Made by a program: the position numbers and the translations under genes. From Patescibacteria group bacterium (GTDB lineage: Bacteria; Patescibacteriota; Microgenomatia; Curtissbacterales; GWA2-41-24), in NCBI GenBank assembly GCA_038063735.1, contig JBBTUN010000004.1, positions 106,646 through 170,645 of the forward strand: 64,000 nucleotides of DNA. Direction: 5' to 3'. Position 1 is the stretch's first letter. Each line of letters begins with the position of its first letter. The notes beneath the pieces are model-generated. The model was not told the DNA's origin and searched no databases. It saw only the letters and a list, made by a program, of their open reading frames with translations. Of this stretch, positions 33,659-51,994 are shown in pieces.

Positions 33659-33731
33659 TTTAAAGTATAAACTTCAGATTAAGCAATACAAGTTGAATAG
33701 ATACTAAAAATATTAGACAATACTCGAAATT

Positions 33732-35980: not shown

Positions 35981-37298
35981 TGCCCTGATAATTTTGGCCT
36001 TTGTTGTTCGATTAGCTTTAATGCCAATATCTGTTCACTCTGATTTATTCTTTATAAATTATTTTCCTAACTTAATTTACACTAAAAATGTTTTTGACAT
36101 ATTTTCCTTTACTCATAATGATTTATCAAAATTAAACGTATCCTACTACCCACCGATTACGTTTTACTTTTTTGGGTTATTTCAGTATTTCTATCATTTT
36201 TTGTCTCAAAGTTTTTCACCATGGATGACCCAGATTTATAACCTTAGGATGAGCGGTGTAAATGGACAATCTTATGATTACCTATCTAAAGCTCCAAATG
36301 AGCACATTTATAAGGATATATTTTTAGCAAAATTTCCATACCTCTTATTTGACCTATCTTCAATTTACGTGATAATGATATATGCAAAAAAACATCTTCT
36401 TAGAAAAAACGCTATTCTAGTTTGGCTCTTTAATCCTGTTATTTTGTATGGTGTTTACTTAATGGGGCAATATGACGTAATTCCAGCATTTTTTGTCCTT
36501 TTAAGTTTTCTGTTAATAAGAAAAAATGTTTATCTTGGAATCATTGTGCTTGGGGTTGCCGCAGCGTTCAAGAATTTTGCCTTTATTTTTATTCTTCCGA
36601 CTATTCTAATTTATATGAAAAGCCCCATCGAGCGCCTCAAGCTTGCAATTGTATCCTTTCTGCCATATTTTGTTTTCCTCTGTCCTACGCTCATTCATGA
36701 CCCAACAGCGGCAATATTTTCGTTCCTTCCTAAAGTTTATTTATCATACCGCAAGCCACTTGAAGACTGGGCACTTTACTCTCAATACATTAAGTATGGG
36801 TTGTTCATGTTAGGGTATGGAGTATTTTTGACTATGTCTTTTTCATTAAAAAGCAGAGATAAGTGGAGACTTGCTGTTGGACTTTGTTTGGCTTCCATTT
36901 TGCTCTTTTTTTCCTTTGCACCAAGAATCTCATTTCATTATCTTCTTTGGGGTGTTCCATTAATAATTATTTGGTATAAAAATTCAAAGACATCATTTTT
37001 AATAATATTAATCCAATCAATAAGCTTAGCCTCTTACAAATTATTGGCGATACAACTGCAACTAGGACTATTTGCTCCAATAAACCTCGCTTTTTCAGTA
37101 TCAACAACGTTTAATGGTTACGTAAATAATTTTTTCCCTTATCGGATAATTAGTACAATGGGATATTTTATTTTTCTTTTTACAAATCTATTTTTAATTA
37201 CTCAAATTATTTTAAACCTATTATTTAGCGAGCCTGCTCTCGTTAAAAATATTGAGAAGAAAAGAGAAAGAAAACAACTTATTTTTCAATCAAGTTAA
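35973..37298 (+). CDS. Polytopic membrane protein (GT-C-like, paralog of 51957-53333). The start is moved to the ATG at 35973, which overlaps the stop of the upstream gene.
   Basis: At least 10 TM segments. It shares a …YYPP… block with 51957-53333 (TTDYPPFAF). Confidence 0.45.
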   Translation: MFSALIILAFVVRLALMPISVHSDLFFINYFPNLIYTKNVFDIFSFTHNDLSKLNVSYYPPITFYFFGLFQYFYHFLSQSFSPWMTQIYNLRMSGVNGQSYDYLSKAPNEHIYKDIFLAKFPYLLFDLSSIYVIMIYAKKHLLRKNAILVWLFNPVILYGVYLMGQYDVIPAFFVLLSFLLIRKNVYLGIIVLGVAAAFKNFAFIFILPTILIYMKSPIERLKLAIVSFLPYFVFLCPTLIHDPTAAIFSFLPKVYLSYRKPLEDWALYSQYIKYGLFMLGYGVFLTMSFSLKSRDKWRLAVGLCLASILLFFSFAPRISFHYLLWGVPLIIIWYKNSKTSFLIILIQSISLASYKLLAIQLQLGLFAPINLAFSVSTTFNGYVNNFFPYRIISTMGYFIFLFTNLFLITQIILNLLFSEPALVKNIEKKRERKQLIFQSS

Positions 37299-38787
37299 AA
37301 ACTACGTAGTTATCATTATCAGCTATTGTTGTGTACTTCTTGTACATATAGTCACTAAAATTTTTATTTAAAAGAAGTTGGTTTTTGTATGAGCTAGCAA
37401 ATATTACCGCCCCCTGGCTCCTTAGCTTTTCTACTTCATCGATAGCATCAGAGACAACCATGTTACTAACTCCATAGAAACTAAAGTTCTCTAAGATCTT
37501 ATTCCTCTGCACATCGAATCCCCATCCCCTTCGTTGTGAATAAAAGACTAACGCTGGGCCTGCATCCATAGATCCAATAACAAGGTCATTCGGCCCTGTA
37601 TTCTTATTAATTACATCAGCAGTCTCTATTACGTAATTAAATCTATCTATTGGCTTATAAGCACGTTGATAAGTTGGTGCAAGCATTGTGATCAAAGTAA
37701 AAGCTACCAAAACAAAAATTATCAAACTCGGTTTAACACTTATTCTCCTTATTAAAGAAGACCACATATTTTCGCATGCAATTCCAATAAAAAGACATGC
37801 AATAGGCAACATTGGCAAGTGATAATACTCATGTGTCATATTGTGTTTGTTAAAAATTATAAAATAAGCAAATACACCGAACAACCAAAAATAAAGGAAT
37901 CTCTGATCAGGTTTCAGTTTTTGAAAAATGCCAACTATAAAGAGCAAAATGCCTGTAGGTAAAAGAACTAAATGATATTCAAACCCGAATACATTATAAT
38001 AATATTGGCGATTCCAAAATAAATTAATGCCGAACCAATTCCCAACAGAGAAGGCACTATGAGAAACCCCACTAAAATCTTTTAGCAAAAATCCATAAGC
38101 CGTCCACACTCCAACAGGTAGGCACGCAACAAAAAAGTATAAAAAAAAGAGCCTACCGATTTTGAGTTTAGTGGTTAAGATTAATAATAGTAATGGGAAA
38201 AGTAAGAAAATAATTGCTGGCAACTTTGTAAGTATTGCCAAAGATGCAAATATTGAACTAATTACAAAGTAAACTACTTTCTTGTTTTTGGTCCATTTCA
38301 AAAGCGTAAAAATCGCCGCCAAAGAAAAAGTGATCATCCATTGATCTGGCTGAAAACTTTTACTAATTAGAACAGATAAAGGAGAAAAAGTATAAAAATA
38401 TAAAGCAGTCAACGAACCGATATTTTTGGTAAACATTCTCGAAATTGAATATATAAGAAAAGCGGCAATCAACCACGCCCATACAGACACAGCTCGCCCA
38501 AGTGTTTCGTTTACACCGCCAAAAATTTTATATGTTAACACTACAATTGAGTTATAGATAGGCGCCTCCAAAAGAAAAATTTTTTTCTCAGGACCTAAAT
38601 AACTCACTTTTGGTTTTAGAAATTCACTATCATAAAAAAGATTTTTGGTAATTTCTGCTGTCTGAATTTGTCTTGAAGGATAAAATTCAAGAAGAGGAAT
38701 ATCTATTTTATAAAGTCTAACTGATAAACCGAAAAGCAAGATTATTAGAAATAATTTCTGATACGAGGTACTTTTAATTAAGTTCAT
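37279..38787 (-). CDS. GT-C family glycosyltransferase (ArnT/PMT-like). Last gene of the nonulosonic-acid operon.
   Basis: 502 aa with about 11 TM segments and a roughly 130-aa soluble C-terminal domain. Overlaps the upstream gene by 14 bp. Confidence 0.55.
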   Translation of the reverse strand: MNLIKSTSYQKLFLIILLFGLSVRLYKIDIPLLEFYPSRQIQTAEITKNLFYDSEFLKPKVSYLGPEKKIFLLEAPIYNSIVVLTYKIFGGVNETLGRAVSVWAWLIAAFLIYSISRMFTKNIGSLTALYFYTFSPLSVLISKSFQPDQWMITFSLAAIFTLLKWTKNKKVVYFVISSIFASLAILTKLPAIIFLLFPLLLLILTTKLKIGRLFFLYFFVACLPVGVWTAYGFLLKDFSGVSHSAFSVGNWFGINLFWNRQYYYNVFGFEYHLVLLPTGILLFIVGIFQKLKPDQRFLYFWLFGVFAYFIIFNKHNMTHEYYHLPMLPIACLFIGIACENMWSSLIRRISVKPSLIIFVLVAFTLITMLAPTYQRAYKPIDRFNYVIETADVINKNTGPNDLVIGSMDAGPALVFYSQRRGWGFDVQRNKILENFSFYGVSNMVVSDAIDEVEKLRSQGAVIFASSYKNQLLLNKNFSDYMYKKYTTIADNDNYVVFNLIEK

Positions 38788-40489
38788 ACTCTGTTCGTTT
38801 CAACATATTAAATATTTTGTCCGATGAGTTAGTTCCAAAAGAACAATAATCCAACAAAAACTTAGCTATCTTACTGTTTTTAGTCGCACTTCTACTCCTT
38901 AGTATTGTCTCTAGACAATGGTTAAGCTCTGATTTATTCTTTGCGACAGATACACCACTGTTTTCTAAGAACTTCTTGGGAAAAATCATTGAAGGAAAGT
39001 AGATAACAGGTTTGCCCATCAAAAGTGCGTATAAAGTTGCTGTGGTTGTCTGCCCGATGATTACATCTGAGCCTCCCAGTAAGTTTACCAAATCCGAATT
39101 TTCATCAAAGTATATTTTTAGTTTTTCTTTTTTTGCAATCGCCTTTAAGACTTTATCGGAAGTTCTCGGATGCAATCGAACAATAATGTTCGCGTTAATT
39201 GCAGTATCTCTCAAAGAGGCTAAAATGATTTTAAAAGTTTTCTCGGTGTTATTGAATTTGTACTGAGAAGAAAAGCCTTCAGCTTGGTGGTGTAAATACA
39301 ATATTTCTAGTCTAGATGACTTGAAGTCTCTTTTTGAATTAAATTTATTTAATTTATCAAAATTTGGCCAACCGCCAACGATTAATCTTTTTGCATCAAT
39401 CCCAAATTTCCCACACAACTTTTTAGTACTTTCTCCCCATACTTCAAAAATGTTAGCCACTAAGTATTTACTATCAATCCCGACATGAAGTCCGTGCTGA
39501 ATCTCAAGAGTTGGAATTTTATTTTTGTTAGCTTCTCTCAGCATTATTTGATTTGTCGAGTCGTTTGTAACTGCCACAACTTGTTTAACATTTATATTGC
39601 GCAGAAGATAGGAAAAAAAAGATTTGTAATTTTCAAGATTAAGCGCATCAACAATTACAACTGAAATTAATTTATCACTAAAAATTGGGTACAAGTCAAA
39701 ATTTTTGTACTTATAGATAGATCTAGATATTGACCGAAGCAAAATGAAATACCTAAACTTTAAAACCAAGTTAAAAATTAATGAAGATAAGTTAACTTCG
39801 CCGGTGTAGTTTAAAAACCTAATGCCACTTTTTACTAGCTCTGGTTCAGCCTGGCCAACTCTGCCTACAACTAAAAGAGAATTTTTCTCAAACTTTTTAA
39901 TTAGTGGAAAGCACCCTAGGATGTGGTAATGGTGAGCCAAAAAAAGCGTAACATCTTCATCTCCAAACACCGCAAAACTATTAAGTGATTTAATTTTTGG
40001 AGGCTTAAAAAGTTGTATCAGATGCTTGATTAAATTGATTTCTACAGTTTTGTTTTTTTTTACTCTTATTCCTTTTTCTTTACAAAGAAACTCGATAAGT
40101 GGTGATAGTGTTTCATGATCAAAGACAAAAAAACTTTTTACACCTTTCTTTTCTCTATCTATATAAACTGTAGTAGGCCGTTCTTTATCTAGTAGTGAAT
40201 TCAAACTTTCAAGTAAATATAAACGTTTGGCAAAAAAATGATGCAGACTGAGATTCAGAGAGCGCAAAACGTCACTTTCTTCACTAACCCAATCTCTGGC
40301 CCAGATCTCTGAGTGTTTACTGATAACATCTTTATTCGCTCGGTCGTAAAAGTCTTCAAAGTTCAAATATCTGATATTTTTATTTATCAAGTAAGTCTTG
40401 ACATCGTCATTTAGCGGTACTAGATGGTTTTTGTCATCGAAGTTAGACAAACTACTAATGTTTGACACGAAGGTAATGTTTTTTGCCAT
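38774..40489 (-). CDS. Soluble GT-B-like protein of the capsule-biosynthesis / TagF / sialyltransferase superfamily. Candidate CMP-nonulosonate transferase.
   Basis: 571 aa. An LHPR 'HP' motif followed by DVIIGQTTTATLYALLMGKPVIYFP. Co-operonic with the CMP-sugar synthetase. Confidence 0.35.
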   Translation of the reverse strand: MAKNITFVSNISSLSNFDDKNHLVPLNDDVKTYLINKNIRYLNFEDFYDRANKDVISKHSEIWARDWVSEESDVLRSLNLSLHHFFAKRLYLLESLNSLLDKERPTTVYIDREKKGVKSFFVFDHETLSPLIEFLCKEKGIRVKKNKTVEINLIKHLIQLFKPPKIKSLNSFAVFGDEDVTLFLAHHYHILGCFPLIKKFEKNSLLVVGRVGQAEPELVKSGIRFLNYTGEVNLSSLIFNLVLKFRYFILLRSISRSIYKYKNFDLYPIFSDKLISVVIVDALNLENYKSFFSYLLRNINVKQVVAVTNDSTNQIMLREANKNKIPTLEIQHGLHVGIDSKYLVANIFEVWGESTKKLCGKFGIDAKRLIVGGWPNFDKLNKFNSKRDFKSSRLEILYLHHQAEGFSSQYKFNNTEKTFKIILASLRDTAINANIIVRLHPRTSDKVLKAIAKKEKLKIYFDENSDLVNLLGGSDVIIGQTTTATLYALLMGKPVIYFPSMIFPKKFLENSGVSVAKNKSELNHCLETILRSRSATKNSKIAKFLLDYCSFGTNSSDKIFNMLKRTEYELN

Positions 40490-40490
40490 C

Positions 40491-41918
40491 TTACTGAAGC
40501 GAGCTTAAAAGGCCTGGGGAGTTGAAAGCCATTTTTTTTAAATTATTAATATCGCTCTTCTTAATATTTCTATTCATTTCAAGTATTCCTTCTTCAATTC
40601 CGATTTCTGTGTGGAAATCCAAAACTCTGTTGATTTTAGAAAAAGAAACTCTATAATTTCTTTTGTCTCCGACTGAATTTAAATTTTTAATAACGACATC
40701 TTTAGATAGTTTTTTTATCGTTTCGGCAATCTCGTTGATCGTGAAATTTGAATTATTTGAGCCTACATTAAAAATCTCGCCACTAATACTTTTAATCGGA
40801 GATTGCAAAACCATTTCTATTGCTCTTGCTGCATCCCTTACATGCAAGAACGGTCGCCATTGGTCACCTCCGTTAACCGGAATACCCTTACCTTGGCTAG
40901 CCAGTAATGTAAAAAAATTAACTACGAGATCAAACCTCGGCCTATGTGACCAACCAAACAAAGTTGAAAGTCTCAAAACGGTTGGTGAAAAATTCTGATC
41001 ACTTAATCTCAAGAGTTCAATTTCACTTTCAATCTTTGATTGAGCATACAGAGATACAGGTATAAGAGGAGATGTCTCTGCTAACAAATTTTCTGATTCG
41101 CTTGCTCCGTATACAGAACAGGTTGAAGTGAAAACTAACCTATTGATTTGAAACTTTTTACAAGTATGAGCAAGATTGATTGTGGCAAGGGTGTTGTCCG
41201 ATATAGCCAAAGTCGGATTAGCACTTGAAGCTTCATCTCCCACTATTGCTGCTAAGTGAACCACCGCATCAACATCCTTTGCAGCTTCTACCACTTCGTC
41301 AATATGCAAAACATCCCCCACAACTAAGTCAAATCCCTTATGCGCCCAAATTTTACTTAACGATTCCTTCCCAAAGCTTAAATTGTCCAAAACCTTAACT
41401 TTATACCCACTGTTTAAAAGCTTGCGAACTAAAACTGATCCTAAGTAGCCGGCACCACCAGTAACAAGAATTTTTTCAACTCGTTTTTCTGTCGATTTAG
41501 CCAAGGTAGTAAGATAGCTGAGTTTTCCGTCTGTATCAATTATTGCTACATCGATTGGTCTTCGGTGCTTATCGAGGATAGGCACCTGAATTATTCCGCC
41601 CGTTGTAGATAGCTTTGAAAGTGAAAGTGCTTTAATCCTTCTATCATTATCGCCCTTGTTTGCTGTAATTGGCCTCCTATTATATATATCCTTTATTTTG
41701 TCACTGTCGGCATGCCCCTCAAGAAGAGACCTTCTTAAGTCCCCAAAAGAAAGGACTCCCTCAAGCTTACCGCTGGATGAACACACAAGGACAATCTTTG
41801 CCCCCGCCTCGTCCATCATTCTTGCAGCTTTCTTAATAGTAGTAGATTCTTTTAGTAATATCTTCTTAAAATTTTTAATCACGTTATTTTTGAATTTTAA
41901 TAGGCACTCCAAACGCAA
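40491..41918 (-). CDS. CBS-domain pair fused to an NAD-dependent sugar epimerase/dehydratase (SDR)
   Basis: The N-terminal roughly 130 aa have CBS-like features (VLSFGDLRR, VAIIDTD). The C-terminal part has KILVTGGAGYLGS and YAQSK. Confidence 0.65.
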   Translation of the reverse strand: MRLECLLKFKNNVIKNFKKILLKESTTIKKAARMMDEAGAKIVLVCSSSGKLEGVLSFGDLRRSLLEGHADSDKIKDIYNRRPITANKGDNDRRIKALSLSKLSTTGGIIQVPILDKHRRPIDVAIIDTDGKLSYLTTLAKSTEKRVEKILVTGGAGYLGSVLVRKLLNSGYKVKVLDNLSFGKESLSKIWAHKGFDLVVGDVLHIDEVVEAAKDVDAVVHLAAIVGDEASSANPTLAISDNTLATINLAHTCKKFQINRLVFTSTCSVYGASESENLLAETSPLIPVSLYAQSKIESEIELLRLSDQNFSPTVLRLSTLFGWSHRPRFDLVVNFFTLLASQGKGIPVNGGDQWRPFLHVRDAARAIEMVLQSPIKSISGEIFNVGSNNSNFTINEIAETIKKLSKDVVIKNLNSVGDKRNYRVSFSKINRVLDFHTEIGIEEGILEMNRNIKKSDINNLKKMAFNSPGLLSSLQ

Positions 41919-42279
41919 TTTTTCCGGCTGGTATGTTTTTGTTTACAAAACTGTGGGCGCCAATTATTGCGTTTTTGCCAATAGTTATGTTGGGCATAAT
42001 CGTGGTGTGGCTTCCTATTCTAGCACCACTCTCAATTTTTACCGGCCCTCTTTTATTATCTATTGTAGACTCGGAGTATATAGAACAATGCGAACCAATC
42101 TGTACATCTTCTCCTATAAAAACTCCGTGTTTTGCATTGATATATGTGAAAGCGCCTATATCTGCACCACTATCAATTGTTAAATTCTTTCTGTTTTGGC
42201 ACATCCACTGCCATTTAGTCATACCTAATCTATTAAACTTGGGTTGTTTCCAGTGAACAAAACGCTGTGAGTTCTTCAT
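41884..42279 (-). CDS. Hexapeptide-repeat (left-handed beta-helix) sugar N-acetyltransferase (PglD/LegH/NeuD-like)
   Basis: Repeated [LIV]G-x4 hexapeptides: IGEDVQIGSHCSI…IGSHTTI…IGKNAIIGAHSFV. Confidence 0.7.
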   Translation of the reverse strand: MKNSQRFVHWKQPKFNRLGMTKWQWMCQNRKNLTIDSGADIGAFTYINAKHGVFIGEDVQIGSHCSIYSESTIDNKRGPVKIESGARIGSHTTIMPNITIGKNAIIGAHSFVNKNIPAGKIAFGVPIKIQK

Positions 42280-43418
42280 CTTCTTGCTCGTTCAACAGCT
42301 TTCTCAAGCGACAGGCAAACTTTTTCAATATCCGATTGCTTCATGTCTGTATAAAGCGGTAATGCTAAGCTGGATGCGCTTGTCGACTCACTGACAGGAA
42401 ATCTACCAGCAGAAGCATTAATTTTTTTCCAATAAGGTTGCAAATGAATTGATGGAAGATACGGCTTTGACTGGATTTTATTCTTTTTTAGTATAGCCAT
42501 TGTCTTGTTCCTATCAATGCTCTTGTCTAATAATACAATAAATGCCTGCCAGCTTCTGCTATAAACAGTATCGTCATCACGTAAAGTTTTAATTAAATTA
42601 TTCTTTTTAAGAATTCTCTTGTAGTAAAGTGCAGCCTTTTTTCTTGATGAAAGTATATATTTGATTTTTTTCATCTGCATCAAACCTACAGCAGCGCTCA
42701 TTTCATCCATTCTGTAGTTGAAGCCAAGTTTATCATGAGAAAGCCATTGTCCCGAATCACCCCTTCCCTGATTAATCAGGCTCTTCAAAAGAGTATAGTC
42801 CTCTTTGTTATTAGTCACAATCATACCCCCTTCTCCTGTTGTAATTTGTTTATTCGGGTAAAAAGCAAAAACTGCCAAATTGCCAAAATTGCCAACTTTT
42901 TTCCCTTTATATGTTGCTCCCAACGATTCACATGCATCCTCCACAATTTTCAATTTGTATTTTTCTGCAAGCTTTTTTATTTTTGCATAATTAATAGGGT
43001 AGCCAAATATATGAACGGGCAATATGGCCTTTGTGCTTTTTGTAATAGCCGACTCGATATTTTCGGGGTTAATATTCAAAGTTTCAGGATCTATATCGAC
43101 AAAGACTGGTTTAGCTTGGCAATATAAAATTGCATTTGCAGAAGAAACAAACGAAAATGGAGATGTAATAACTTCATCGCCAGGCTTAAGCCCTAAGGTA
43201 ACAACTGAGGCATGAAGGCCGGCTGTTCCCGAAGAGACAGCAATGGCATATTTTGTTCCGACAAAATCGGCAATACTTTTTTCAAATGCCTCCAGGTATT
43301 TTCCAAGTCCAAGAATTCCGGATCGTAAAACTTTCTGTACAGCTTTCTCCTCGTCAGTTGTAATAAATGGTGGACTCAATGGAATTAACTCTTGTGGTAA
43401 TTTATTAATTCTTTTCAT
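42276..43418 (-). CDS. DegT/DnrJ/EryC1/StrS family PLP-dependent sugar aminotransferase (LegC/PglE-like)
   Basis: 380 aa. AVSSGTAGLH motif and the family-typical length and composition. Confidence 0.8.
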   Translation of the reverse strand: MKRINKLPQELIPLSPPFITTDEEKAVQKVLRSGILGLGKYLEAFEKSIADFVGTKYAIAVSSGTAGLHASVVTLGLKPGDEVITSPFSFVSSANAILYCQAKPVFVDIDPETLNINPENIESAITKSTKAILPVHIFGYPINYAKIKKLAEKYKLKIVEDACESLGATYKGKKVGNFGNLAVFAFYPNKQITTGEGGMIVTNNKEDYTLLKSLINQGRGDSGQWLSHDKLGFNYRMDEMSAAVGLMQMKKIKYILSSRKKAALYYKRILKKNNLIKTLRDDDTVYSRSWQAFIVLLDKSIDRNKTMAILKKNKIQSKPYLPSIHLQPYWKKINASAGRFPVSESTSASSLALPLYTDMKQSDIEKVCLSLEKAVERARR

Positions 43419-44553
43419 AAAAATGTTTTTGAATTAAATTAAGATGTAAATTAATTTTTTCCAGTATTTTTGCGATTTTCTTACCGCTATGCCCATTGCC
43501 GTAAATATTGTCCTTTTTAAACCTTTTTTTGCCCTTGATTATTTTACTTATAGCAGTCTCTATTCTTAAAGCATCGTAGTCAATATCCACCACGTTACTG
43601 TTTCTTTCTCTGCCTTCCTGTCTAGTACCGACATTAACAACTGGCAACCCAAAGGATGAAGCTTCAATTATTCCGCTGGATGAGTTACCAACAAGAACAT
43701 TCGCAATTCTCAGAGTGTTAGCATAAATTCTTCTGTCCATATTTCTTAAGACTAGGTAGTCTTTTTTCGAACTGAATTTTTCAAGCTCATTGGCAATAGC
43801 GTTAGAACCAGGATCTCCATTAGGATAAATCAAAATTCTCGTGCACTTGATGTTTGATACAGCTTTTAATGTTTCTCTTATCTCTCGCCTTGCTGTAGTC
43901 GGAGATGTTGAAACAGGGTGTTGTAACAGAATTATTAAAGTGTTACCAATTTTGACACCCAACTTCTTAGAGAGTTCACCCTTGCTAATTACAGGTTCGC
44001 TCATAAGTTCATCAAGCCCGGGTGCGCCCACTAAAAATACATTTTTTGGATTTTCTCCCATCCTTAAAATCCTATTCATACTTTTTTTTGTCGCGGGAAA
44101 GTGGAAATGGGCAAGTTTTGTAATAGCGTGTCTTATAGACTCATCAAACCCGGCTTTAGAAAGATCCCCACCGTGGATATGAGCAATTGGGATTGGAATA
44201 AAAGCTGCAGAAACTGCGCAAGCAAGCGCTTCACTCCTGTCGCCACTTAAAACGACTAAATCTGGCTTAAGCCTTAAAAGAATTTTGGTAAATTCTAGTA
44301 TCCCGTTGCCTATCTCGAGACTAACCTTCCCCTCAATCTCTTCGTCTATAACAATGTTTACCTTAGCATCTATTGAAAAACCATCTCTATTAATCAGCTC
44401 GATTGTGGAGCCATATTTCTTAAGAAGATGAACTCCGGAGACAATAAGTTGTAAATCAAGACTTTTAGATTCGCTAATCGCGGTAACTACAGGCCTAAGA
44501 ATTCCATACTCAGATCTTCCGCCAGTAAAAACTGCAATACGTTTCCTTTTCAT
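43405..44553 (-). CDS. UDP-N-acetylglucosamine 2-epimerase, hydrolysing type (NeuC/LegG-like)
   Basis: IAVFTGGRSEYGILRPV N-terminus and GDRSEALACAVSAAFIPIPIAHIHGGD. Confidence 0.7.
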   Translation of the reverse strand: MKRKRIAVFTGGRSEYGILRPVVTAISESKSLDLQLIVSGVHLLKKYGSTIELINRDGFSIDAKVNIVIDEEIEGKVSLEIGNGILEFTKILLRLKPDLVVLSGDRSEALACAVSAAFIPIPIAHIHGGDLSKAGFDESIRHAITKLAHFHFPATKKSMNRILRMGENPKNVFLVGAPGLDELMSEPVISKGELSKKLGVKIGNTLIILLQHPVSTSPTTARREIRETLKAVSNIKCTRILIYPNGDPGSNAIANELEKFSSKKDYLVLRNMDRRIYANTLRIANVLVGNSSSGIIEASSFGLPVVNVGTRQEGRERNSNVVDIDYDALRIETAISKIIKGKKRFKKDNIYGNGHSGKKIAKILEKINLHLNLIQKHFYEKN

Positions 44554-45434
44554 AAGAGCCTATCGCCAATTTTAATTTTTCTTGGCTGCCACTTAGTAAC
44601 ATAAATCGCACCATCTCGGCATTTAACGATAAAACCACCCTTTTTCTTTTTTACAACCTCGCCATTTGCTCCTGGAAAGGTTTCATGCATTTTTCTTGCT
44701 TGCCATATTATTAACTTTTTTTCGCCAAACGTACAAAATGCGCCCGGATACGGCCGGGTTGTTGCTCTTATTAGCTTATCAATTCGGTCTAAACTCCAGG
44801 ACCATTTTATTTTTCCGTCCATTGGTTCTCTAGCTGGCCAATAATTACTCCTAGCCGGCTGCATAATTATTTTTATTGTTCCGTTTTCAATTTGGGGTAA
44901 AACTTTGTTAACCATTATTTTTCCAACAGCAATCATTTTTTTGTAAATACTAGCAGCGTCATCCTTAGAAGTAATCTTCCATTTCATTTGATATACAACG
45001 TCTCCGGTGTCTGCGCCTTCATCCAAATACATAAATGTCAGTCCGGAGACTTTTAATCCTTTTATTATCGACCAGGGTATTGGTGATCTACCCCGATTTT
45101 TTGGAAGAAGAGCCGGGTGAGTTCCAAGAACACCGATTGATGGTAACGTCAGTAATGTTTTTTTAACAATTTGTGAGAGGCCAAAAACCAACATCAAATC
45201 TGGTTTTAGTTTTCTTATCAAACTCACATTTTTATTTTCATTAATGTTTTTAAACCAAAAGTGCGGAATCTTATATTTTTTAGCAAGGTCAGATTGATCT
45301 CTGTAATCAGAGATGTTTTTTGAAAAATCTGGATGGACGTTGAAAACGCCAACTACATCGGCAAGTTTTTTTTCTAAAATCTCGTTCAGGCAGTACCAAG
45401 AGAACTCAATGCTGCCTATATAAACGACTCTCAT
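44550..45434 (-). CDS. Formyltransferase (Fmt-like), probable sugar N-formyltransferase
   Basis: GVLGTHPALLPKNRGRSPIPWSIIKG (HxxLLPxxRG motif). The C-terminal domain is Fmt-like. Confidence 0.7.
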   Translation of the reverse strand: MRVVYIGSIEFSWYCLNEILEKKLADVVGVFNVHPDFSKNISDYRDQSDLAKKYKIPHFWFKNINENKNVSLIRKLKPDLMLVFGLSQIVKKTLLTLPSIGVLGTHPALLPKNRGRSPIPWSIIKGLKVSGLTFMYLDEGADTGDVVYQMKWKITSKDDAASIYKKMIAVGKIMVNKVLPQIENGTIKIIMQPARSNYWPAREPMDGKIKWSWSLDRIDKLIRATTRPYPGAFCTFGEKKLIIWQARKMHETFPGANGEVVKKKKGGFIVKCRDGAIYVTKWQPRKIKIGDRLL

Positions 45435-45436
45435 AA

Positions 45437-46099
45437 TTAATCATTTCTGGCGTATAAAATTGAAAAAACTTCTGCATATTTATACCCGGATCTTAGACCT
45501 CTTTCCGAGGCAAGTATCGTTAACCCTTTTAAGGATCTGGGATGAGGGTATTCTTTTAATTCTGATTTGTAAAAACTCATAACCTCCAGCTTATTTTTAA
45601 AATTTAAAGAAATGTTCTCGAAGTAATTAAAAACCTGCTTGTTACTTTTTATTTCCGAAAAATTTGTTGTGACTGGAATCTCATAGCTAATAATCTGTTT
45701 AACTTCACTTCCATTCCATGGTCTAACAACGGAAAGAACATTACCGGTCACAATTTCATGGTCCAAATGGCAATCGAAAAGCGGTGGCGTGTAAATAACC
45801 TCGGCCCTTGTTGACTTGACTGCATTTGAAATTGTATCGGCTATCTCAAGTTGAGGATAACTGGAAAGAGAAGCTGCTTTGAACTTAGCATTAATAACTT
45901 TCCGAAATCCATAATAACTCCCAACTTTTTTTATCTCCTTTTTTTTTGCAGTTATATAACGGGCATCCCATTTCGGAGTAAAAGCGCGAGTCACAATGAG
46001 CCAGGACAAGCTATGGCCGCGAGATGAAAGTTTTGAGAGAGTTCCCCCCATTCCTATTGTCTCATCATCTGGATGAGCAGAAATTATAAGAATATTCAT
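45437..46099 (-). CDS. PIG-L/LmbE family N-acetyl-sugar deacetylase
   Basis: LIISAHPDDETIGMGGT signature. Confidence 0.7.
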   Translation of the reverse strand: MNILIISAHPDDETIGMGGTLSKLSSRGHSLSWLIVTRAFTPKWDARYITAKKKEIKKVGSYYGFRKVINAKFKAASLSSYPQLEIADTISNAVKSTRAEVIYTPPLFDCHLDHEIVTGNVLSVVRPWNGSEVKQIISYEIPVTTNFSEIKSNKQVFNYFENISLNFKNKLEVMSFYKSELKEYPHPRSLKGLTILASERGLRSGYKYAEVFSILYARND

Positions 46100-47208
46100 T
46101 CGACCATTTCTGAAGTAATTTCTTGGTCGGCGACAACAGAAGTTTTCAAATTCTTGTCCAGTAACTGTTCAAAGTCCATCGGTGATTGTCTGCCACGAGT
46201 TCTTTTAGGAATAAGCAAGTCAATAGTGACCTTGTCTCCTTCGGCCATATCATTCCTTGCCCTGACAGCTTTTCTAAAAAACTCTATATTATTTACCTCA
46301 GATGGTTGTACTTTTTTTACTCCATCGCCAAGTGCTTCGGGGTGTTTTATTTCTTTTGAAGGGGATGATTCGGCTTCTCTTATTAAATTAACCATTTCAC
46401 GAAACTCTTCTGTATTAAGAGAAGCTCTATGGTCGGGACCGTCCATTTTCTTGTCGAGTGTCATATGTTTTTCAATAGAAACCGCTCCAAGTCTGACTGC
46501 ATCTGCCGGTACAATCATGTCGTCGCCGTTATCGGAAAATCCCACCAATACACCATATTTTTGAGAAAGCTTTTCTTTAAATGTTTTAATAACATCGAGG
46601 TTTTGTTCTCGTGTAGGAGTAGGATAAGAAGATGTACAGTGGTAAACAAGGATCGTGCCTTCAAAACCATGTTCTTGTAAAAATACTAGGGATCTCTCAA
46701 CGTCTTCAAGTGTTCCACCCCCTGTTGAAAGGAACAATGGCTTAGATTTTAAATCAGGATGTTTTGCGATCTTATATAATAAAAGTCCGTTATTTAAATC
46801 CGGAGACGCAATTTTAATTACAGGTAAGTTTAATCTGGCTAATATATCTACACTTGTCAGATCGTGGGGTGTAGCATAGAAAATTATCCCCTTCTGCCAA
46901 GAATATTGCTGTAGTTGGACAAGTTGGTCTTCTGAAAGTGAAAGTTTTTTTAACATCTCGCGTTGGCTTTCGCCTTCGCCAGTGGTCTCTTTTTGGTAAT
47001 TCCCTTTGGATGCATCCTTAGTTGCAATCTCATCCGGGATAAAAATCTGAAATTTGACAGCGTCTGCGCCGACAGCTTTTGCTTGATCAATAAGTTTTCT
47101 TGCCAAATCCACTTGTCCATTGTGATTGACACCTGCTTCTGCAACGATAAAGCATGGTTGGCCAATTCCTACAGACTTATCCCCAATGCTTATATTTTGT
47201 CTTTTCAT
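46096..47208 (-). CDS. Nonulosonic acid synthase (NeuB/LegI/PseI family) with a C-terminal SAF domain
   Basis: GQPCFIVAEAGVNHNGQ and AVKFQ motifs. About 370 aa. Confidence 0.8.
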   Translation of the reverse strand: MKRQNISIGDKSVGIGQPCFIVAEAGVNHNGQVDLARKLIDQAKAVGADAVKFQIFIPDEIATKDASKGNYQKETTGEGESQREMLKKLSLSEDQLVQLQQYSWQKGIIFYATPHDLTSVDILARLNLPVIKIASPDLNNGLLLYKIAKHPDLKSKPLFLSTGGGTLEDVERSLVFLQEHGFEGTILVYHCTSSYPTPTREQNLDVIKTFKEKLSQKYGVLVGFSDNGDDMIVPADAVRLGAVSIEKHMTLDKKMDGPDHRASLNTEEFREMVNLIREAESSPSKEIKHPEALGDGVKKVQPSEVNNIEFFRKAVRARNDMAEGDKVTIDLLIPKRTRGRQSPMDFEQLLDKNLKTSVVADQEITSEMVE

Positions 47209-47246
47209 ATCGACGACATTGTAATTAATTGTTTAGTCAAATACAA

Positions 47247-47954
47247 TCAACCCTTTTTATATGCAAATAAAGCTCTGGCTATGTTTAGGTCTTCCATATC
47301 ATCTACGTCAATTGATTCTAACTTACTAGTAAGAATGTAACCAGACCGATTTTTAGCAAAAGGATACCTAAGCGCTTTTTTAATAAAATCCTTCTTATAA
47401 ACGTACAAAACGCCATCTATTTCATAATTCTTATCAAAATCTTGTCCACGGATTTTTGAAAAATCATTTGCATAGATAAACTCCAATAGTTCTTTGTTTA
47501 TTTTAAGAATCCAGTTAGAAGGGAATTTAGTTTGTTTTACAGAAAATATTGCGTCAAGCTTATCCCAATTCCCCCAAAGCTTTTTAATGCCAGAGATGAT
47601 GGTAGTTGCTGATCTAAAAGGGGAAGTGGGTTGTAACAAGACTACCGTGTCGAATCGCACCCCTTCCTCTTCCAGTGCCTCAACAGAATGTTTCAAAACG
47701 GACAAGGTCGAAGATTTGTCTTTAGCATGTTGGTTAGGTCTTTTTATAATCTTTGCTTCATACCTGGTAGCAGTTTGAGCAATTTCTGCATCATCTGTAG
47801 AAACATAAATCCGACTAGGGAAGTACTTAGAGATTTTGGCAGATAAAATAGTGTATGCAATTAACGGTTTACCATCGATATCTACGACATTTTTTTTAGG
47901 AATTCTCTTCGATCCACCCCGCGCAGGAATAATTGCAATGGCACGGTGTTTCAT
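47247..47954 (-). CDS. CMP-nonulosonic acid synthetase (acylneuraminate cytidylyltransferase, NeuA/LegF family)
   Basis: AIIPARGGSKRIPKKN N-terminal signature. Confidence 0.8.
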   Translation of the reverse strand: MKHRAIAIIPARGGSKRIPKKNVVDIDGKPLIAYTILSAKISKYFPSRIYVSTDDAEIAQTATRYEAKIIKRPNQHAKDKSSTLSVLKHSVEALEEEGVRFDTVVLLQPTSPFRSATTIISGIKKLWGNWDKLDAIFSVKQTKFPSNWILKINKELLEFIYANDFSKIRGQDFDKNYEIDGVLYVYKKDFIKKALRYPFAKNRSGYILTSKLESIDVDDMEDLNIARALFAYKKG

Positions 47955-47960
47955 AAGTAA

Positions 47961-49244
47961 TTATTCTTCAATATCTTTGCTCTTCAATATTCTAGGGATG
48001 GGAAGAGGAATTATAAAATCACCTCGGAAACCATTTTTTTTAATTTTAGGAGCCAACTCATCTGCAATATGCCATGATAAAAGAAGTGCATAATCCGGTT
48101 GGTCGCTATAAAGCCTATCTTCATCAAGAACGGGAATTACAGTACCAGGGACGTACTTACCAATCTTATGTGAACCTTTTATTTCTAAAACACAATCCAA
48201 AATACCATCATCAATTCCAACGTAATTTATTAGTGTACTGGCTCGTGACGGGGCCCCGATTCCATAAATAACCTTATTTTGTATTTTTAATTTTTCCAAA
48301 AGGGACATGATCTTAAGTTTTGATAAAGTCACTTCTTTTTGGAATCTAATTAAATTTGCTTTATTAGTAACCGCAGCTTTCTCTTTCTTAAGCATATCCC
48401 CAACACTCTTCCCAATTTTTCGAGTGTCTTTCTTGGCAGCGTATACTCTGATTGAGCCACCGTGAGACGGAATGTTTTTTGCATGAAATACCTCAAGCCC
48501 ATGCATAGCAAGGAGATACTTTAAACTGTGGAGTGAATAATATCTCATATGTTCATGATAAATAGTATCATATTGTAAAGTTTTAATTAACGAATAAAGA
48601 TAATGAGACTCAGATATAAATACACCGCCTGGTTTTATGAGTCGAATAATATTTTTCAAAGCTTCATGAATATTTTCCATATGTGCAAAAACATTTGTGG
48701 CAGTGACGACTGTCGCTTTTCCTCTAGTTTTGATAATTTTATCAACAACTTTTGCAGTAAAATAATCTATTATAGTATCAATCCCTTTTTTAACCGCGAG
48801 TTTCCCAATTTCTTCGGGTGTTACCCCGAGAACTTTATGCTCATTAACAAAGTTAGAAAGAAGATTTCCATCATTTGATCCAATGTCTACAATCAAATCC
48901 TCACTTTTAAGTGATAGTAATTTTGAAGATTCGCGATATAATTCCTCAAAATTTTCTCTTAAAACCCTCGTGGTGCTACTCGTGTAAGGGTATTCTGGAG
49001 GGAATAAAATTTTTGGATCAACGATAAGTCCAAGCTGGACTAGATGACATTTTCGACAGTACAACCATTGAGCAGGGTAGCTGGGTTCCTCAGACGGTCT
49101 AGTGCCAATCTTTGGCATCGTGTTGACAGGGGGCAAGTATCCTAGAAAAAGGATAGAGGATAGTTTAGGGTTTTCACATATTTGACATTTTTTTACCACC
49201 ACGCTGGAACCGGTACCAAAAGCAAAGGAAGAATTCTTAGTCAT
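47961..49244 (-). CDS. Putative sugar C-methyltransferase (Zn-ribbon Methyltransf_13 N-domain + SAM MTase, TylCIII/NovU-like)
   Basis: CQIC…CRKC zinc ribbon, a DIGSNDGNLL SAM motif and a C-terminal Methyltransf_14-like region. Confidence 0.55.
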   Translation of the reverse strand: MTKNSSFAFGTGSSVVVKKCQICENPKLSSILFLGYLPPVNTMPKIGTRPSEEPSYPAQWLYCRKCHLVQLGLIVDPKILFPPEYPYTSSTTRVLRENFEELYRESSKLLSLKSEDLIVDIGSNDGNLLSNFVNEHKVLGVTPEEIGKLAVKKGIDTIIDYFTAKVVDKIIKTRGKATVVTATNVFAHMENIHEALKNIIRLIKPGGVFISESHYLYSLIKTLQYDTIYHEHMRYYSLHSLKYLLAMHGLEVFHAKNIPSHGGSIRVYAAKKDTRKIGKSVGDMLKKEKAAVTNKANLIRFQKEVTLSKLKIMSLLEKLKIQNKVIYGIGAPSRASTLINYVGIDDGILDCVLEIKGSHKIGKYVPGTVIPVLDEDRLYSDQPDYALLLSWHIADELAPKIKKNGFRGDFIIPLPIPRILKSKDIEE

Positions 49245-49271
49245 TAGATAATATTCGCTTCTCCATACATC

Positions 49272-49322
49272 ATTTATTCTAAATTATATTCACTTCGCTT
49301 ATGTAATTTATTCTAAATTATA
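49272..49322. repeat. 17-bp perfect direct repeat ATTTATTCTAAATTATA, two copies at 49272-49288 and 49306-49322
   Basis: Seen directly in the sequence. The second copy overlaps the stop codon of 49313-50302. Confidence 0.8.
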
Positions 49323-50302
49323 AGGGCAGGGGGTTTTAAATGAGCGTTATTATTATACCAATCGGCAGTAATTTGTAAACCTTCGTAAAAACTAAATTTC
49401 GGCTGATAGCCAAGTTTTCTAATCTTCGAAATATCTGGAAGACGTCGATTAGTACCGCCTTTTTGTATCTTTCCGGGAATTATTTTTATTTTTTGTCCAA
49501 AAAAATCCGCCACCCCCTGTGCCACCTCATTAATAGCAATTTCCTGATCCGTGCCGATGTTATATATCTCTAAATGTTTGCCATGCTTAATTATAGTTTC
49601 CAGCCCTTTCACAAAATCATCAATGTACACAAATGCTCTCGTCTCCTTGCCGGAACCCTGAATATGAAATTTTACAAGTCCATGATCCTTTTTAGATAAC
49701 TCTCTCATTCTGATAACGAATTGTGGGATTACATGTTCCCACCCCATCTCTGGGCCGAATACATTATGGGGACGGAAAATCATTGCACGTCTAAAATATT
49801 TTCTACCATAATTCGCGACAAAAAGTTCACTTATTATTTTCCCTCCCCCGTAAGAATAGCGGGGGTTTAACAAATCAGGAACAATTAAACGAACATTTTC
49901 CGGCGTCGGCACAACTGGGGGAGTTTGATAAACTTCAGAACTTGAAGCGAAATAAATTTCATCTACACCGTTCCATAAACATGAATCAATTACATTAATA
50001 ATTCCACGCGTGGACACATCTAATACAACTTCTGGCATCGAATAAAAAAACTTAGTGCCGTTTACAGCGGCAAGATGAATTACTCCATCAACACCCTTGC
50101 ATGCGATATTGACAATTTTTGGATCCCTAACGTCGCCGGAAATAAATTCAAAATCATTTACGATATCCTTTAAGCTCTCTAAATTACCTCTCGAATTGTT
50201 ATCTAAAACTCTGGTAGTATAGCCGTTTCTTACCATAGCCCTCGTGACATTCCTACCGATAAACCCGGTGCCTCCAGTCACTAAATATTTTTTTGCAAAC
50301 AT
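49313..50302 (-). CDS. NAD-dependent epimerase/dehydratase (SDR). First gene of the minus-strand nonulosonic-acid operon.
   Basis: VTGGTGFIGRNV motif and YSYGGGK. Confidence 0.7.
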   Translation of the reverse strand: MFAKKYLVTGGTGFIGRNVTRAMVRNGYTTRVLDNNSRGNLESLKDIVNDFEFISGDVRDPKIVNIACKGVDGVIHLAAVNGTKFFYSMPEVVLDVSTRGIINVIDSCLWNGVDEIYFASSSEVYQTPPVVPTPENVRLIVPDLLNPRYSYGGGKIISELFVANYGRKYFRRAMIFRPHNVFGPEMGWEHVIPQFVIRMRELSKKDHGLVKFHIQGSGKETRAFVYIDDFVKGLETIIKHGKHLEIYNIGTDQEIAINEVAQGVADFFGQKIKIIPGKIQKGGTNRRLPDISKIRKLGYQPKFSFYEGLQITADWYNNNAHLKPPALII

Positions 50303-50323
50303 TTTGCTTATCGGCAGTCTTTC

Positions 50324-51241
50324 ATGTATATTCTATGCGATATGTCAAGGCAAAAAATACTCGTTTACGGAATTACAGGGATGACAGGCACAAGATTTGC
50401 CGAACTGGTCAGAGATAAATTTAAAATTATTGGCCCTCCTCGTTTCATTGTCGACCTCACAAATAAGAAACAAGTGAAAAAAAATATCCGAGATGTTAGT
50501 CCAGATCAGATACTTTATTTAGCAGGAATCACTAAAGTAGATGAGGCACAGCAAAATCCTAAAAACGCATATTTACTTAATTCGGAAGCTGTAAAATATG
50601 CTGCGAAAGAGTCAGCTCTCCTAAACATCCCTTTTCATTATGTTTCTACTGATGCTGTGTTTGACGGCAAACTAAAAAACAGACTGTATAAAGAAAATGA
50701 TAAAACTAATCCGATTTCCATTTATGGTAAAAGTAAATTAGCTGGGGAAAAAGTTGTATTAGAATTTTCAAATAAGAATTCTGTCATCAGGACAATAATG
50801 ATATATTCTCCAAATTATCCGCATAAAAAAGATTTTGCCAAGTTTGCTTACGAATCACTAAAATACAAAAAACCAATAACTGGAATAATCGATCAATTTA
50901 TAAATCCAACCTATGTGGACGATTTGGTAAATGGCATCTGCAAAATATTGCAAAAAAGAGAAAGTGGCATTTACCATGTTGCAGCAACAGACAGTACCAC
51001 TAACTTTGAATTTCTAAAAAAAATAGAGAAAACTTTCAAATTCAATAAAAATCTTATTACAGAAACAACATTTAATGAATTTTTCAAAGATAAAACCGCG
51101 CCTAGACAGCAATACAGTAGACTTTCAACCGAAAAATTTAGAAAAAAATTTGGAAACGGAATCCTTCACAAAATAGATCAAGGAATCAATGAATTTAAAA
51201 AACAGATGTCAAAACTAGAAACGCAACCTATTGACGTTTAG
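50324..51241 (+). CDS. RmlD-like NAD(P)H sugar reductase (dTDP-4-dehydrorhamnose reductase family). The start is possibly the ATG at 50342.
   Basis: ILVYGITGMTG motif, a VSTDAVFDG signature and YGKSK. Confidence 0.6.
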   Translation: MYILCDMSRQKILVYGITGMTGTRFAELVRDKFKIIGPPRFIVDLTNKKQVKKNIRDVSPDQILYLAGITKVDEAQQNPKNAYLLNSEAVKYAAKESALLNIPFHYVSTDAVFDGKLKNRLYKENDKTNPISIYGKSKLAGEKVVLEFSNKNSVIRTIMIYSPNYPHKKDFAKFAYESLKYKKPITGIIDQFINPTYVDDLVNGICKILQKRESGIYHVAATDSTTNFEFLKKIEKTFKFNKNLITETTFNEFFKDKTAPRQQYSRLSTEKFRKKFGNGILHKIDQGINEFKKQMSKLETQPIDV

Positions 51242-51994
51242 TCTCACTAAGATCCCGTATAAATACCATCGTACATACTTGGGCAGCCACTTCAATAGTT
51301 TAAATTTAGATTTTCCCACTGTTCTATCTCTCCAAACTGTTGGCACATCTCCGATTTTAAAACCGGCATGATACGCTTTTATTATTATCTCGCAAGAGTA
51401 TTCCCAGCCACCTGTTGACTCGATTTTTATCTTGTCGAAAATATTTCTTTTATACATCTTAAAACCGTTTGATATATCTGTTGTTGGAATTCCCAGTAGA
51501 AAAGGACTAAGCTGGCCAGCAAATCTGGAAAGCAAAGTTTTTAAAAAACCTCCACCAATCTTTTTACCACCTTTTCCATATCTGGATGCACATACAATAT
51601 CAAAGCCATCCTCCATTTTCGTGTACATCTTATTCACTGTTTTCGGTTCATCAGCTAAATCCGCAGGCATGATCACAACCACTTTCCCTTTTGCATTCTT
51701 AATTCCGGTTTTAACTGCGTTTATCACCCCTTTTCCAAAATTGTTTTTCACCAAAATTACGCTTTTAAATTTGCGTTGAAGTTTTCTTGCATATGGAATA
51801 GTATTATCTTCATCAAAATCATAAACGATTAAGATTTCATGAGGGTTTATTACATCTTTTTCTAAAGCAATTATTTGTGTTGTAATGTTCTCACCTTCGT
51901 TATAAACAGGCAAGACAATACTTAAATCAAAATGCTTATTCGAAGAAAAGCTTTGCTTATTCACTTCCAGCCAAATACTTTCTAAGATAAACAA
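51215..51994 (-). CDS. GT2 polyprenyl-phosphate sugar synthase (DPM1-like)
   Basis: LSIVLPVYNEGENI…VIMPADLAD motifs. Confidence 0.7.
   Translation of the reverse strand: MFILESIWLEVNKQSFSSNKHFDLSIVLPVYNEGENITTQIIALEKDVINPHEILIVYDFDEDNTIPYARKLQRKFKSVILVKNNFGKGVINAVKTGIKNAKGKVVVIMPADLADEPKTVNKMYTKMEDGFDIVCASRYGKGGKKIGGGFLKTLLSRFAGQLSPFLLGIPTTDISNGFKMYKRNIFDKIKIESTGGWEYSCEIIIKAYHAGFKIGDVPTVWRDRTVGKSKFKLLKWLPKYVRWYLYGILVRLNVNRLRF

Follow-up and report, generated by a model that had tools for sequence, protein, structure and literature searches.

Which sugar is synthesized by the nonulosonic acid (NulO) genes of a groundwater Patescibacteria bacterium, and which of the adjacent genes take part in its synthesis and transfer? 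NulOs decorate many microbial surfaces, and their diversity, especially that of the editing and transfer enzymes, is poorly known; a full-text search of a literature collection found no paper joining nonulosonic or legionaminic acids with the candidate phyla radiation (CPR) or Patescibacteria. The window, i.e. the whole analyzed stretch of 64,000 nucleotides (64 kb) from contig JBBTUN010000004.1 (assembly GCA_038063735.1, positions 106,646 to 170,645), belongs to a Patescibacteria metagenome-assembled genome and was matched exactly in Hainich groundwater metagenomes (0.1-µm fraction). According to our analysis, its minus-strand gene run from position 47954 down to 37279 is, with a probability of approximately 60%, a single unit for the synthesis and transfer of a CMP-activated 5,7-diamino NulO of the legionaminic acid (Leg) series. 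Most likely, the locus represents a variant of the known Leg pathway with edited N-acyl groups (deacetylated, probably formylated).

Core enzymes of the proposed pathway

The open reading frames of the window were scanned with Pfam and NCBIfam profiles; relatives were collected by PDB, metagenome-cluster and GTDB comparison, and the gene neighbourhoods of homologues that were compared with the window carry locus labels (L005, L007, L088, etc.). An earlier note on this DNA had described ten back-to-back minus-strand reading frames at 40491-50302 as a complete Leg- or sialic acid-type pathway. Reading frame listing, Pfam and NCBIfam reproduced the outer limits of this block exactly and recovered all named domains, chance matches being excluded by the E-values (see Table 1).

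Table 1. Genes of the proposed NulO unit (first ten lines) and of the neighbouring putative C-methyl sugar genes (last four lines); positions refer to the window.
Predicted product	Length (aa)	Position	Strand	Profile match or other evidence
CMP-nonulosonate synthetase (NeuA/LegF/PseF-like)	235	47247..47954	-	PF02348 CTP_transf_3, 1.3e-21
NeuB-family nonulosonate synthase (LegI-like)	370	46096..47208	-	PF03102, 5.7e-72, 242 bits
PIG-L/LmbE-family N-deacetylase	220	45437..46099	-	PF02585, 1.2e-19, 71.6 bits (cutoff 28.2)
Fmt/ArnA-like formyltransferase, G-x-H variant subfamily	294	44550..45434	-	PF00551 and PF02911, above cutoffs
Hydrolysing NDP-HexNAc 2-epimerase (NeuC/LegG type)	382	43405..44553	-	Epimerase_2, TIGR03568
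DegT-family sugar 4-aminotransferase	380	42276..43418	-	PF01041, 2.8e-117, 392 bits
Left-handed beta-helix acyltransferase (NeuD/PglD C-terminal-half type)	131	41884..42279	-	Hexapep, 9.6e-16, 57 bits
CBS-pair + extended SDR fusion (CBS-SDR)	475 from TTG (463 from NCBI start 41882)	40491..41918	-	Pfam CBS + Epimerase
GT-B-fold protein, candidate CMP-nonulosonate transferase	571	38774..40489	-	Predicted fold, BFO_1060-family match
PMT_2 (GT-C, ArnT/PMT-like) membrane glycosyltransferase, final gene of run	502	37279..38787	-	PF13231, 1.3e-12
Extended SDR (SDR329)	329	49313..50302	-	Epimerase, 8e-45; S-S-E-V-Y, dehydratase/decarboxylase type
Sugar 3-C-methyltransferase family protein (TylC3/TcaB9/MtmC type)	427	47961..49244	-	PF08421, PF13489, PF08484, above cutoffs
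RmlD-like NDP-4-ketosugar reductase	305	50324..51241	+	PF04321, 2.1e-57; rmlD 187.5 bits (cutoff 224)
Small GT2, polyprenyl-phosphate glycosyltransferase-like	259	51215..51994	-	PF00535, 6.3e-25
aa, amino acids; NDP, nucleoside diphosphate; HexNAc, N-acetylhexosamine; SDR, short-chain dehydrogenase/reductase.

The type of the pathway is indicated by the NeuC homologue: It scored 414.6 bits with TIGR03568 (cutoff 235.9) versus 86 bits with the wecB model, and its best PDB match was the GDP/UDP-N,N'-diacetylbacillosamine (diNAcBac) hydrolysing 2-epimerase LegG (5XVS, 223 bits). Together with the lack of PseG and GNAT genes in the run, this bears out the earlier proposal of a NeuC-dependent Leg or neuraminic acid type. 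A product of pseudaminic acid (Pse) type was rejected, as the NeuB homologue reached 197.3 bits with the PseI model (cutoff 340), a NeuC is present and no GNAT or PseG-like gene occurs in the run.

The NeuB homologue, a member of PF03102 for which a Kdo8P (3-deoxy-D-manno-octulosonate 8-phosphate) or DAHP (3-deoxy-D-arabino-heptulosonate 7-phosphate) synthase identity is ruled out by the model scores, has to be regarded as a divergent member of its family, because its score with TIGR03569 (NeuB_NnaB; 326.6 bits) does not reach the equivalog cutoff (399.65). Its best PDB match was Bacillus subtilis SpsE (1VLI, 162 bits; PseI 121 and Neisseria NeuB, NmNeuB, 120 bits), the gene of which is genetically required for Leg formation in B. 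subtilis (PMC7439481). The protein falls into a tight clade of approximately 370-residue sequences (51-75% identity; 29 members above 50%), followed by a next tier at approximately 45%, of which many are archaeal and several carry the JGI name 'N,N'-diacetyllegionaminate synthase'. In a neighbor-joining tree, crude and without support values, of 99 NeuB homologues labelled by gene neighbourhood rather than by curated NeuB/LegI/PseI references, the clade grouped with NeuC/DegT-linked NeuB proteins, apart from paralogues in Pse-type contexts. The GTDB genome collection yielded one close locus (L008, a 5.4-kb contig, 54% identity); the other 79 loci, at 35-43% identity, serve for co-occurrence statistics only. 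Both motifs quoted previously are there: the cytidylyltransferase has AIIPARGGSKRIPKKN at residue 7, and the NeuB homologue has CFIVAEAGVNHNG at residue 19. The SAF domain ascribed to the latter received no Pfam call; the TIGR03569 match covers residues 19-364, though, so that a diverged C-terminal domain is present.

With the cytidylyltransferase, the top NCBIfam model was PseF (153 bits, cutoff of 205.7 not reached), and the best PDB matches were CMP-N-acetylneuraminic acid (Neu5Ac) synthetases (6IFD, 115 bits) versus 38 bits for KdsB. The DegT protein matched the NCBIfam models PseC (314 bits) and LegC (307 bits), each under its own cutoff, and in the PDB perosamine synthetase (234 bits), ArnB (207 bits), PglE (159 bits) and PseC (156 bits). 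The hexapeptide transferase was matched by TIGR03570 only over model positions 111-202; its orthologues, 115-137 residues long, are present in all related clusters (L005, L007, L088-L092). The DegT and hexapeptide transferase genes are adjacent and overlapping, and both are kept in all of these clusters. The co-operonic aminotransferase and acetyltransferase, in a gene block conserved in CPR bacteria and archaea, speak for a 5,7-diamino, Leg-like sugar, as had been suggested before.

Conserved gene order and extent of the run

A common order of genes, i.e. cytidylyltransferase, NeuB, NeuC, DegT with hexapeptide transferase, SDR, a protein of approximately 530-580 residues and usually a PMT_2 GT-C enzyme, recurs in the clade members L005, L007, L088, L089 and L090 and in the archaeal relatives L091 and L092. 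In the window, this core spans 47954 to 37279 on the minus strand, so that the operon extends 3.2 kb past position 40491, where the earlier note had set its limit, and includes the GT-B gene followed by the GT-C gene. The GT-B gene starts after a gap of 1 nt behind the CBS-SDR gene and overlaps the PMT_2 gene by 14 nt; over all genes from 50302 to 37279, the junctions span -35 to +68 nt, with overlaps at 6 of 11. Promoter-like sites were not enriched (43 found, 52 expected), a scan that leaves the transcription units undecided, and no terminator was found in the intergenic gaps.

The core is accompanied by interchangeable modification cassettes: PIG-L plus formyltransferase in the window and L088, PIG-L with WbqC and one additional SDR in L089, and HisH/HisF-like amidotransferase sets in L005, L007, L090 and L091. 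In the archaeal-type metagenome contig L092, 19 kb contain three NeuB paralogues and two cytidylyltransferases, arranged as a Leg-type block with CBS-SDR plus a Pse-type block (S-T-D-K SDR, DegT, GNAT); judged by its genes, this organism apparently makes several NulOs.

From the observed domain identities, gene order and motif states we infer the substrates, step order, formyl position, stereochemistry and 9-deoxygenation of the following scheme. The CBS-SDR would convert NDP-N-acetylglucosamine (NDP-GlcNAc) into a 4-keto(-6-deoxy) sugar, which would be aminated at C4 by the DegT enzyme; the new amine would be acetylated by the short beta-helix transferase. Subsequently, the NeuC/LegG-type enzyme would release the nucleotide and epimerize C2, the NeuB-type synthase would condense the product with phosphoenolpyruvate, and the cytidylyltransferase would form the CMP-sugar. 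The latter would be moved onto an acceptor by the GT-B protein, the adjacent GT-C enzyme presumably working on the same glycoconjugate.

The entry step and alternative readings

Several observations weigh against this scheme. The NeuB, PseF/LegF-like and LegC-like proteins all remain under their NCBIfam equivalog cutoffs, and a nucleotidyltransferase for the starting NDP-HexNAc is absent from the 64-kb window. In 5/5 PIG-L-linked formyltransferases, Gly stands for the catalytic Asn of N-x-H (His and Asp are kept). In approximately 40 ordinary Leg-like loci, the SDR beside DegT shows more similarity to SDR329 than to the CBS-SDR. Finally, characterized sugar 4,6-dehydratases carry T-D-E, T-S-E or T-D-K at the acid/base motif, and the CBS-SDR is devoid of this Asp/Glu (or Asp/Lys) pair. 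The best PDB match of its SDR domain was 6VO6 (153 bits), presumably Cj1427, the non-dehydrating GDP-heptose C4 dehydrogenase of Campylobacter jejuni, followed by 6WJ9/6WJB (131-133 bits), of which we take 6WJ9 to be the UDP-GlcNAc 4-epimerase PelX; dTDP-glucose dehydratases reached approximately 75-102 bits. Completeness of the pathway, as claimed by the earlier note, therefore depends on a non-canonical enzyme, the one SDR left for the entry step being without canonical dehydratase acid/base residues.

The CBS-SDR fusions constitute a family of approximately 460 residues that is mostly archaeal (Woese- and Nanoarchaeota, Thermoplasmata, marine Euryarchaeota, Hodarchaeota). The motifs S-[ST]-C-S-V-Y-G and Y-A-x-x-K are invariant in 121/121 aligned sequences; the window protein possesses Y-A-Q-S-K, and S-T-C-S where the acid/base pair is expected. 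Some relatives are longer with extra fused domains, e.g. P0160 (665 residues, class-I methyltransferase) and P0150/P0169 (approximately 580 residues), which suggests further fused tailoring functions in the family. Among solved structures, 6VO6 and 6WJ9 are nearest to the SDR domain of the CBS-SDR, and both likewise lack the dehydratase Asp/Glu; they differ in having no CBS pair, 6VO6 in addition by T-N-S versus the T-C-S with invariant Cys, and in genomic role, the CBS-SDR being the proposed first enzyme of a NulO route.

The invariant S-[ST]-C-S in place of the dehydratase motif, the score of 6VO6 well above those of the dTDP-glucose dehydratases and the otherwise complete cluster L091, where the CBS-SDR is the sole extended SDR, would all agree with a plain C4 oxidase. 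In this case, the clusters would not produce Leg, but an undescribed 5,7-diamino-3,5,7-trideoxy-NulO that keeps its 9-hydroxyl group, i.e. a '7-amino-7-deoxy-sialic acid' type, here also N-formylated; the family is widespread in DPANN, Thermoplasmatota, marine Euryarchaeota and part of the CPR bacteria. Cofactor regeneration via 2-oxoglutarate could be provided by the DegT partner, as in the WbpB/WbpE pair. The C4 oxidase reading is considered improbable, if the best of the alternatives. To our knowledge, no 9-hydroxy 5,7-diamino NulO has been reported, and the invariant Cys beside the catalytic Thr could act as acid/base. Moreover, the same operon slot is filled in the sister clusters L005, L007 and L090, with orthologous NeuB, NeuC, DegT and hexapeptide transferase, by an SpsM/CapE-type SDR with S-T-D-K and M-x3-K; in B. 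subtilis, an enzyme of the SpsM type was shown to act as the UDP-GlcNAc 4,6-dehydratase in Leg formation (PMC7439481). Such a non-orthologous displacement at a fixed slot among orthologous genes favours functional equivalence. As SDR329 is assigned to another module (see below), the 4-keto sugar needed by the aminotransferase has to come from the CBS-SDR. In sum, the sequence comparison favours a non-canonical dehydratase over a plain C4 oxidase. The CBS-SDR may represent a mechanistically new, Cys-dependent 4,6-dehydratase with the CBS pair gating pathway entry; that the CBS pair has this regulatory role we only infer.

The putative C-methyl sugar genes

The earlier note had counted SDR329 and the C-methyltransferase among the pathway genes. 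SDR329 was matched best by the NCBIfam models LegB (141 bits) and dTDP-glucose dehydratase (137 bits), each far under cutoff, and its S-S-E-V-Y resembles that of UDP-glucuronic acid decarboxylases. The C-methyltransferase matched MtmC (4RV9, 198 bits) over its full length (residues 10-420) and TcaB9 (166 bits); its three-domain architecture includes the YHEH active-site motif and four Zn cysteines. Among the NCBIfam models, PgfS, ArnC, PpgS and dolichyl-phosphate hexose transferase were the best matches of the GT2 protein. With the RmlD-like reductase, these genes constitute a four-gene unit that keeps its arrangement in L005 and L089 (the reductase is divergent in both); in L089 the unit is placed as in the window, in L005 it comes downstream of the NulO genes and is encoded on the other strand. 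The start codons of SDR329 and the reductase are divergent and 21 bp apart (50302-50324), so that any promoters lie within coding sequence; the best sigma-70-like site of the region (11/12 plus extended TG; 49379->49352) is located inside the 3' end of SDR329, approximately 100 nt upstream of the C-methyltransferase.

If SDR329 were the LegB-type 4,6-dehydratase and the CBS-SDR an accessory epimerase or reductase setting stereochemistry, all ten genes would act on one sugar, in the extreme form a C-methyl-branched (C10) ulosonic acid. Consistent with this are the S-S-E-V-Y motif and the LegB match, the affinity of SDR329 to the DegT-adjacent SDRs of Leg-like loci mentioned above, its occurrence with the C-methyltransferase within 10 kb of the NeuB clade in 4/4 informative loci, and the unassigned C10 ulosonic acids of Magnetospirillum (preprint). 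This arrangement is nevertheless rated slightly less probable than the C4 oxidase, also in its extreme form: L091 is complete without an SDR329-like SDR, the unit of SDR, C-methyltransferase, reductase and GT2 is intact but on the other strand in L005, and the Magnetospirillum locus L050 is without a C-methyltransferase. Furthermore, C-methyltransferase homologues of 67-70% identity (L094-L096) occur with NeuB, NeuC and cytidylyltransferase absent within 10 kb, the same SDR being located directly upstream in L095 and L096 as it is in L005 and L089; the C-methyltransferase family (66-87% identity in more than 120 clusters, Woesearchaeota and Elusimicrobia among them) is also much larger and more conserved than the NeuB clade. 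The C-methyltransferase is an improbable maker of the Magnetospirillum C10 acids, since L050 has none and the SDR/C-methyltransferase pair occurs without NulO genes.

SDR329 and the C-methyltransferase are accordingly removed from the pathway and placed in a module that is found without NulO genes. The module is probably co-transcribed with the NulO genes (the gap between the C-methyltransferase and cytidylyltransferase genes is 6 nt), but would take no part in NulO synthesis. In the simplest reading of these sequences, it would be a self-contained route to a C-methyl-branched sugar, which would be loaded on polyprenyl phosphate and delivered to the GT-C enzymes. The loci L094, L095 and L096 all have a UDP-glucose-dehydrogenase-family gene nearby as well as GT2 genes (PMT_2 in L095 and L096); because of these neighbours and the decarboxylase-like S-S-E-V-Y, the C-methyltransferase may act on a UDP-4-keto-pentose rather than on a 6-deoxyhexose.

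Two unrelated pathways, one from NeuC, NeuB and NeuA to CMP-Neu5Ac and one from SDR, DegT and acetyltransferase to a bacillosamine-like diamino hexose, are very unlikely: NeuC, NeuB and NeuA alone would be enough for Neu5Ac, and TIGR03569 is named N-acetylneuraminate synthase, as is the family in the NCBI name of the protein ('N-acetylneuraminate synthase family'), but the order of the block NeuB-NeuC-hexapeptide transferase-DegT-SDR is conserved in CPR and archaeal lineages, the nearest solved relatives of NeuC and NeuB are the diNAcBac-specific LegG and the Leg-pathway SpsE, respectively, and a separate glycosyltransferase set for a bacillosamine product is absent within the run.

Proposed N-acyl editing

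Within the proposed Leg-type unit, the PIG-L protein has intact Zn motifs (AHPDDE, residues 8-13, H-P-D-D; CHLDH, residues 110-114, H-x-D-H), and homologues adjoin NeuC/NeuB in L011, L033, L037, L059, L060, L066, L072, L084, L088 and L089. The pair of formyltransferase and PIG-L next to NeuC recurs in L033 (Anaerolineae), L037 (Lachnospiraceae), L072 (Psychrobacillus) and L088 (CPR) and is a recurring, predicted N-acyl editing cassette. The formyltransferase matched ArnA and Fmt in the PDB with approximately 112 bits each; judged by its profile scores, it is a member of the N10-formyl-THF-dependent family (Fmt/ArnA/PurN) with a variant active site in the Asn-x-His ... Asp triad, and formyl transfer is not assured because of the replaced catalytic Asn. 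The N-x-H motif is kept in the second formyltransferase of the window (32882-33658) and in other NulO-locus formyltransferases.

The earlier note had assigned no role to the deacetylase and the formyltransferase. In the proposed pathway, PIG-L would strip the N-acetyl group inherited from GlcNAc (N5 of the final sugar), and the Fmt/ArnA-like enzyme would then put a formyl group on the freed amine. A deacetylase is needed only for the GlcNAc-derived acetyl group at N5, since the N7 acyl group is set by the pathway's own transferase. As N7 is served by the hexapeptide acetyltransferase, a 5-formamido-7-acetamido Leg-type sugar appears to be the likeliest product; a free-amine form is possible.

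Candidate transferase and GT-C enzymes

The 571-residue GT-B-fold protein showed no strong Pfam match (Capsule_synth 20.1 bits, at cutoff). Its family is rare: out of 1.84 billion, 9 representatives reach E<=1e-30, 71 reach 1e-10 and 763 reach 1e-3; relatives match Epimerase_2, TagF-type, KpsC/S-type and GT1 models, three of them polysialyltransferase models and two the NCBIfam LIC12162 family. The protein itself matched the NCBIfam 'BFO_1060 family glycosyltransferase' with an E-value of 1.5e-11 (44 bits versus a cutoff of 200). H440-P441, an HP motif, is near-invariant in the family (57/60 and 54/60 sequences); the D/E-D/E-G motif is absent from it, a conserved Q-H-G being present instead. 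A profile from six close relatives detected homologues within 10 kb of NeuB in approximately 15 further loci of diverse phyla. BFO_1060 is orthologous to the Tannerella forsythia transferases for Pse/Leg derivatives that were verified by knock-out and possess the HP motif of sialyltransferases (PMC5420450). In comparison with the latter (Tanf_01245 / TFUB4_00887 / BFO_1060), the 571-residue protein agrees in the family-domain match, the predicted GT-B fold, the HP motif and the NulO-gene neighbourhood and differs in an extra N-terminal region, in Q-H-G for D/E-D/E-G and in a score far under the cutoff. By homology and context, it is somewhat more probable than an even bet that this candidate is the CMP-nonulosonate transferase.

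The PMT_2 gene is kept after the GT-B gene in L007, L088, L089 and L090. The 64 kb contain at least six, possibly eight, PMT_2/GT-C paralogues: four in tandem at 680-7251 (+), those at 37279-38787 (-) and 56092-57768 (-), and two weaker ones at 51957-53333 (-) and 54411-56090 (+), which is a remarkably high number for a small CPR genome.

Comparison with known systems

The CMP-Leg pathways of C. jejuni (LegB/C/H/G/I/F), Legionella/Acinetobacter (PglF/E/D-like plus LegG/I/F) and B. subtilis (SpsM/C/D/G/E/F; PMC7439481) follow the same six-step logic as the window run and have the NeuC, NeuB, DegT and cytidylyltransferase families in common with it. The window run differs from these: its proposed first enzyme, a CBS-fused SDR, lacks the acid/base residues of dehydratases, its 131-residue acetyltransferase is a beta-helix protein without the PglD/NeuD N-terminal domain, and a deacetylase plus a formyltransferase are encoded between synthase and epimerase.

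A deacetylase and a formyltransferase among leg/neu homologues are also embedded in the Leg-like cluster of Ca. Kuenenia stuttgartiensis, for which CMP-NulOs with one free amine and one N-formyl group were measured (SugarBase preprint, bioRxiv 10.64898/2026.04.20.719630); as these groups were seen on CMP-NulOs, N-acyl editing precedes transfer in this organism. The two systems differ in lineage (Planctomycetota versus Patescibacteria) and gene order, the enzymes being compared by description only. Halorubrum sp. PV6 makes 5-N-formyl-Leg for archaeal N-glycosylation, with a predicted formyltransferase in its leg cluster (PMC6137143); like the window, it thus has a Leg cluster with an embedded formyltransferase, whereas no deacetylase is reported and its LegB gene, of approximately 1 kb, is not CBS-fused. 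The C-methyltransferase resembles TcaB9, MtmC, KijD1 and TylC3 in the full-length match, the Zn cysteines and Y-H-E-H, but is located in a CPR/archaeal surface-glycan locus instead of an antibiotic deoxysugar pathway.

Other sugar genes in the window

The remainder of the window is packed with glycan genes; tRNA and Rfam scans of the 64 kb found none of these elements. A second sugar pathway at 31879-35980 encodes a WecB of the non-hydrolysing type that exceeds its cutoff (262 bits), an archaeal-type UDP-GlcNAc 3-dehydrogenase-like GFO/IDH protein, a UDP-N-acetylmannosamine-dehydrogenase-like enzyme and the above-mentioned formyltransferase at 32882-33658 (-) with canonical N-x-H; taken together, these predicted enzymes are reminiscent of an N-formylating route of the 2,3-diamino-mannuronic-acid type. 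The region 57722-63581 (-) contains RfbH (CDP-4-keto-6-deoxyglucose 3-dehydrase; 664 bits, cutoff 423) and, nearby, a LegC-like DegT protein, a GNAT and an acetolactate-synthase-like thiamine diphosphate enzyme (370 bits, under cutoff), and could be a YerE-like route to a branched-chain 3,6-dideoxyhexose.

Implications

One compact operon thus yields three testable candidates: The CBS-SDR stands for an uncharacterized, mostly archaeal family at the pathway entry; the pair of deacetylase and variant formyltransferase would explain the origin of free-amine and N-formyl NulOs; the GT-B protein may be a legionaminic-type transferase, a class with few known enzymes. Moreover, a groundwater CPR bacterium of ultra-small size commits over 60 kb to genes for surface glycans, probably with a sialic-acid-like sugar among the products.

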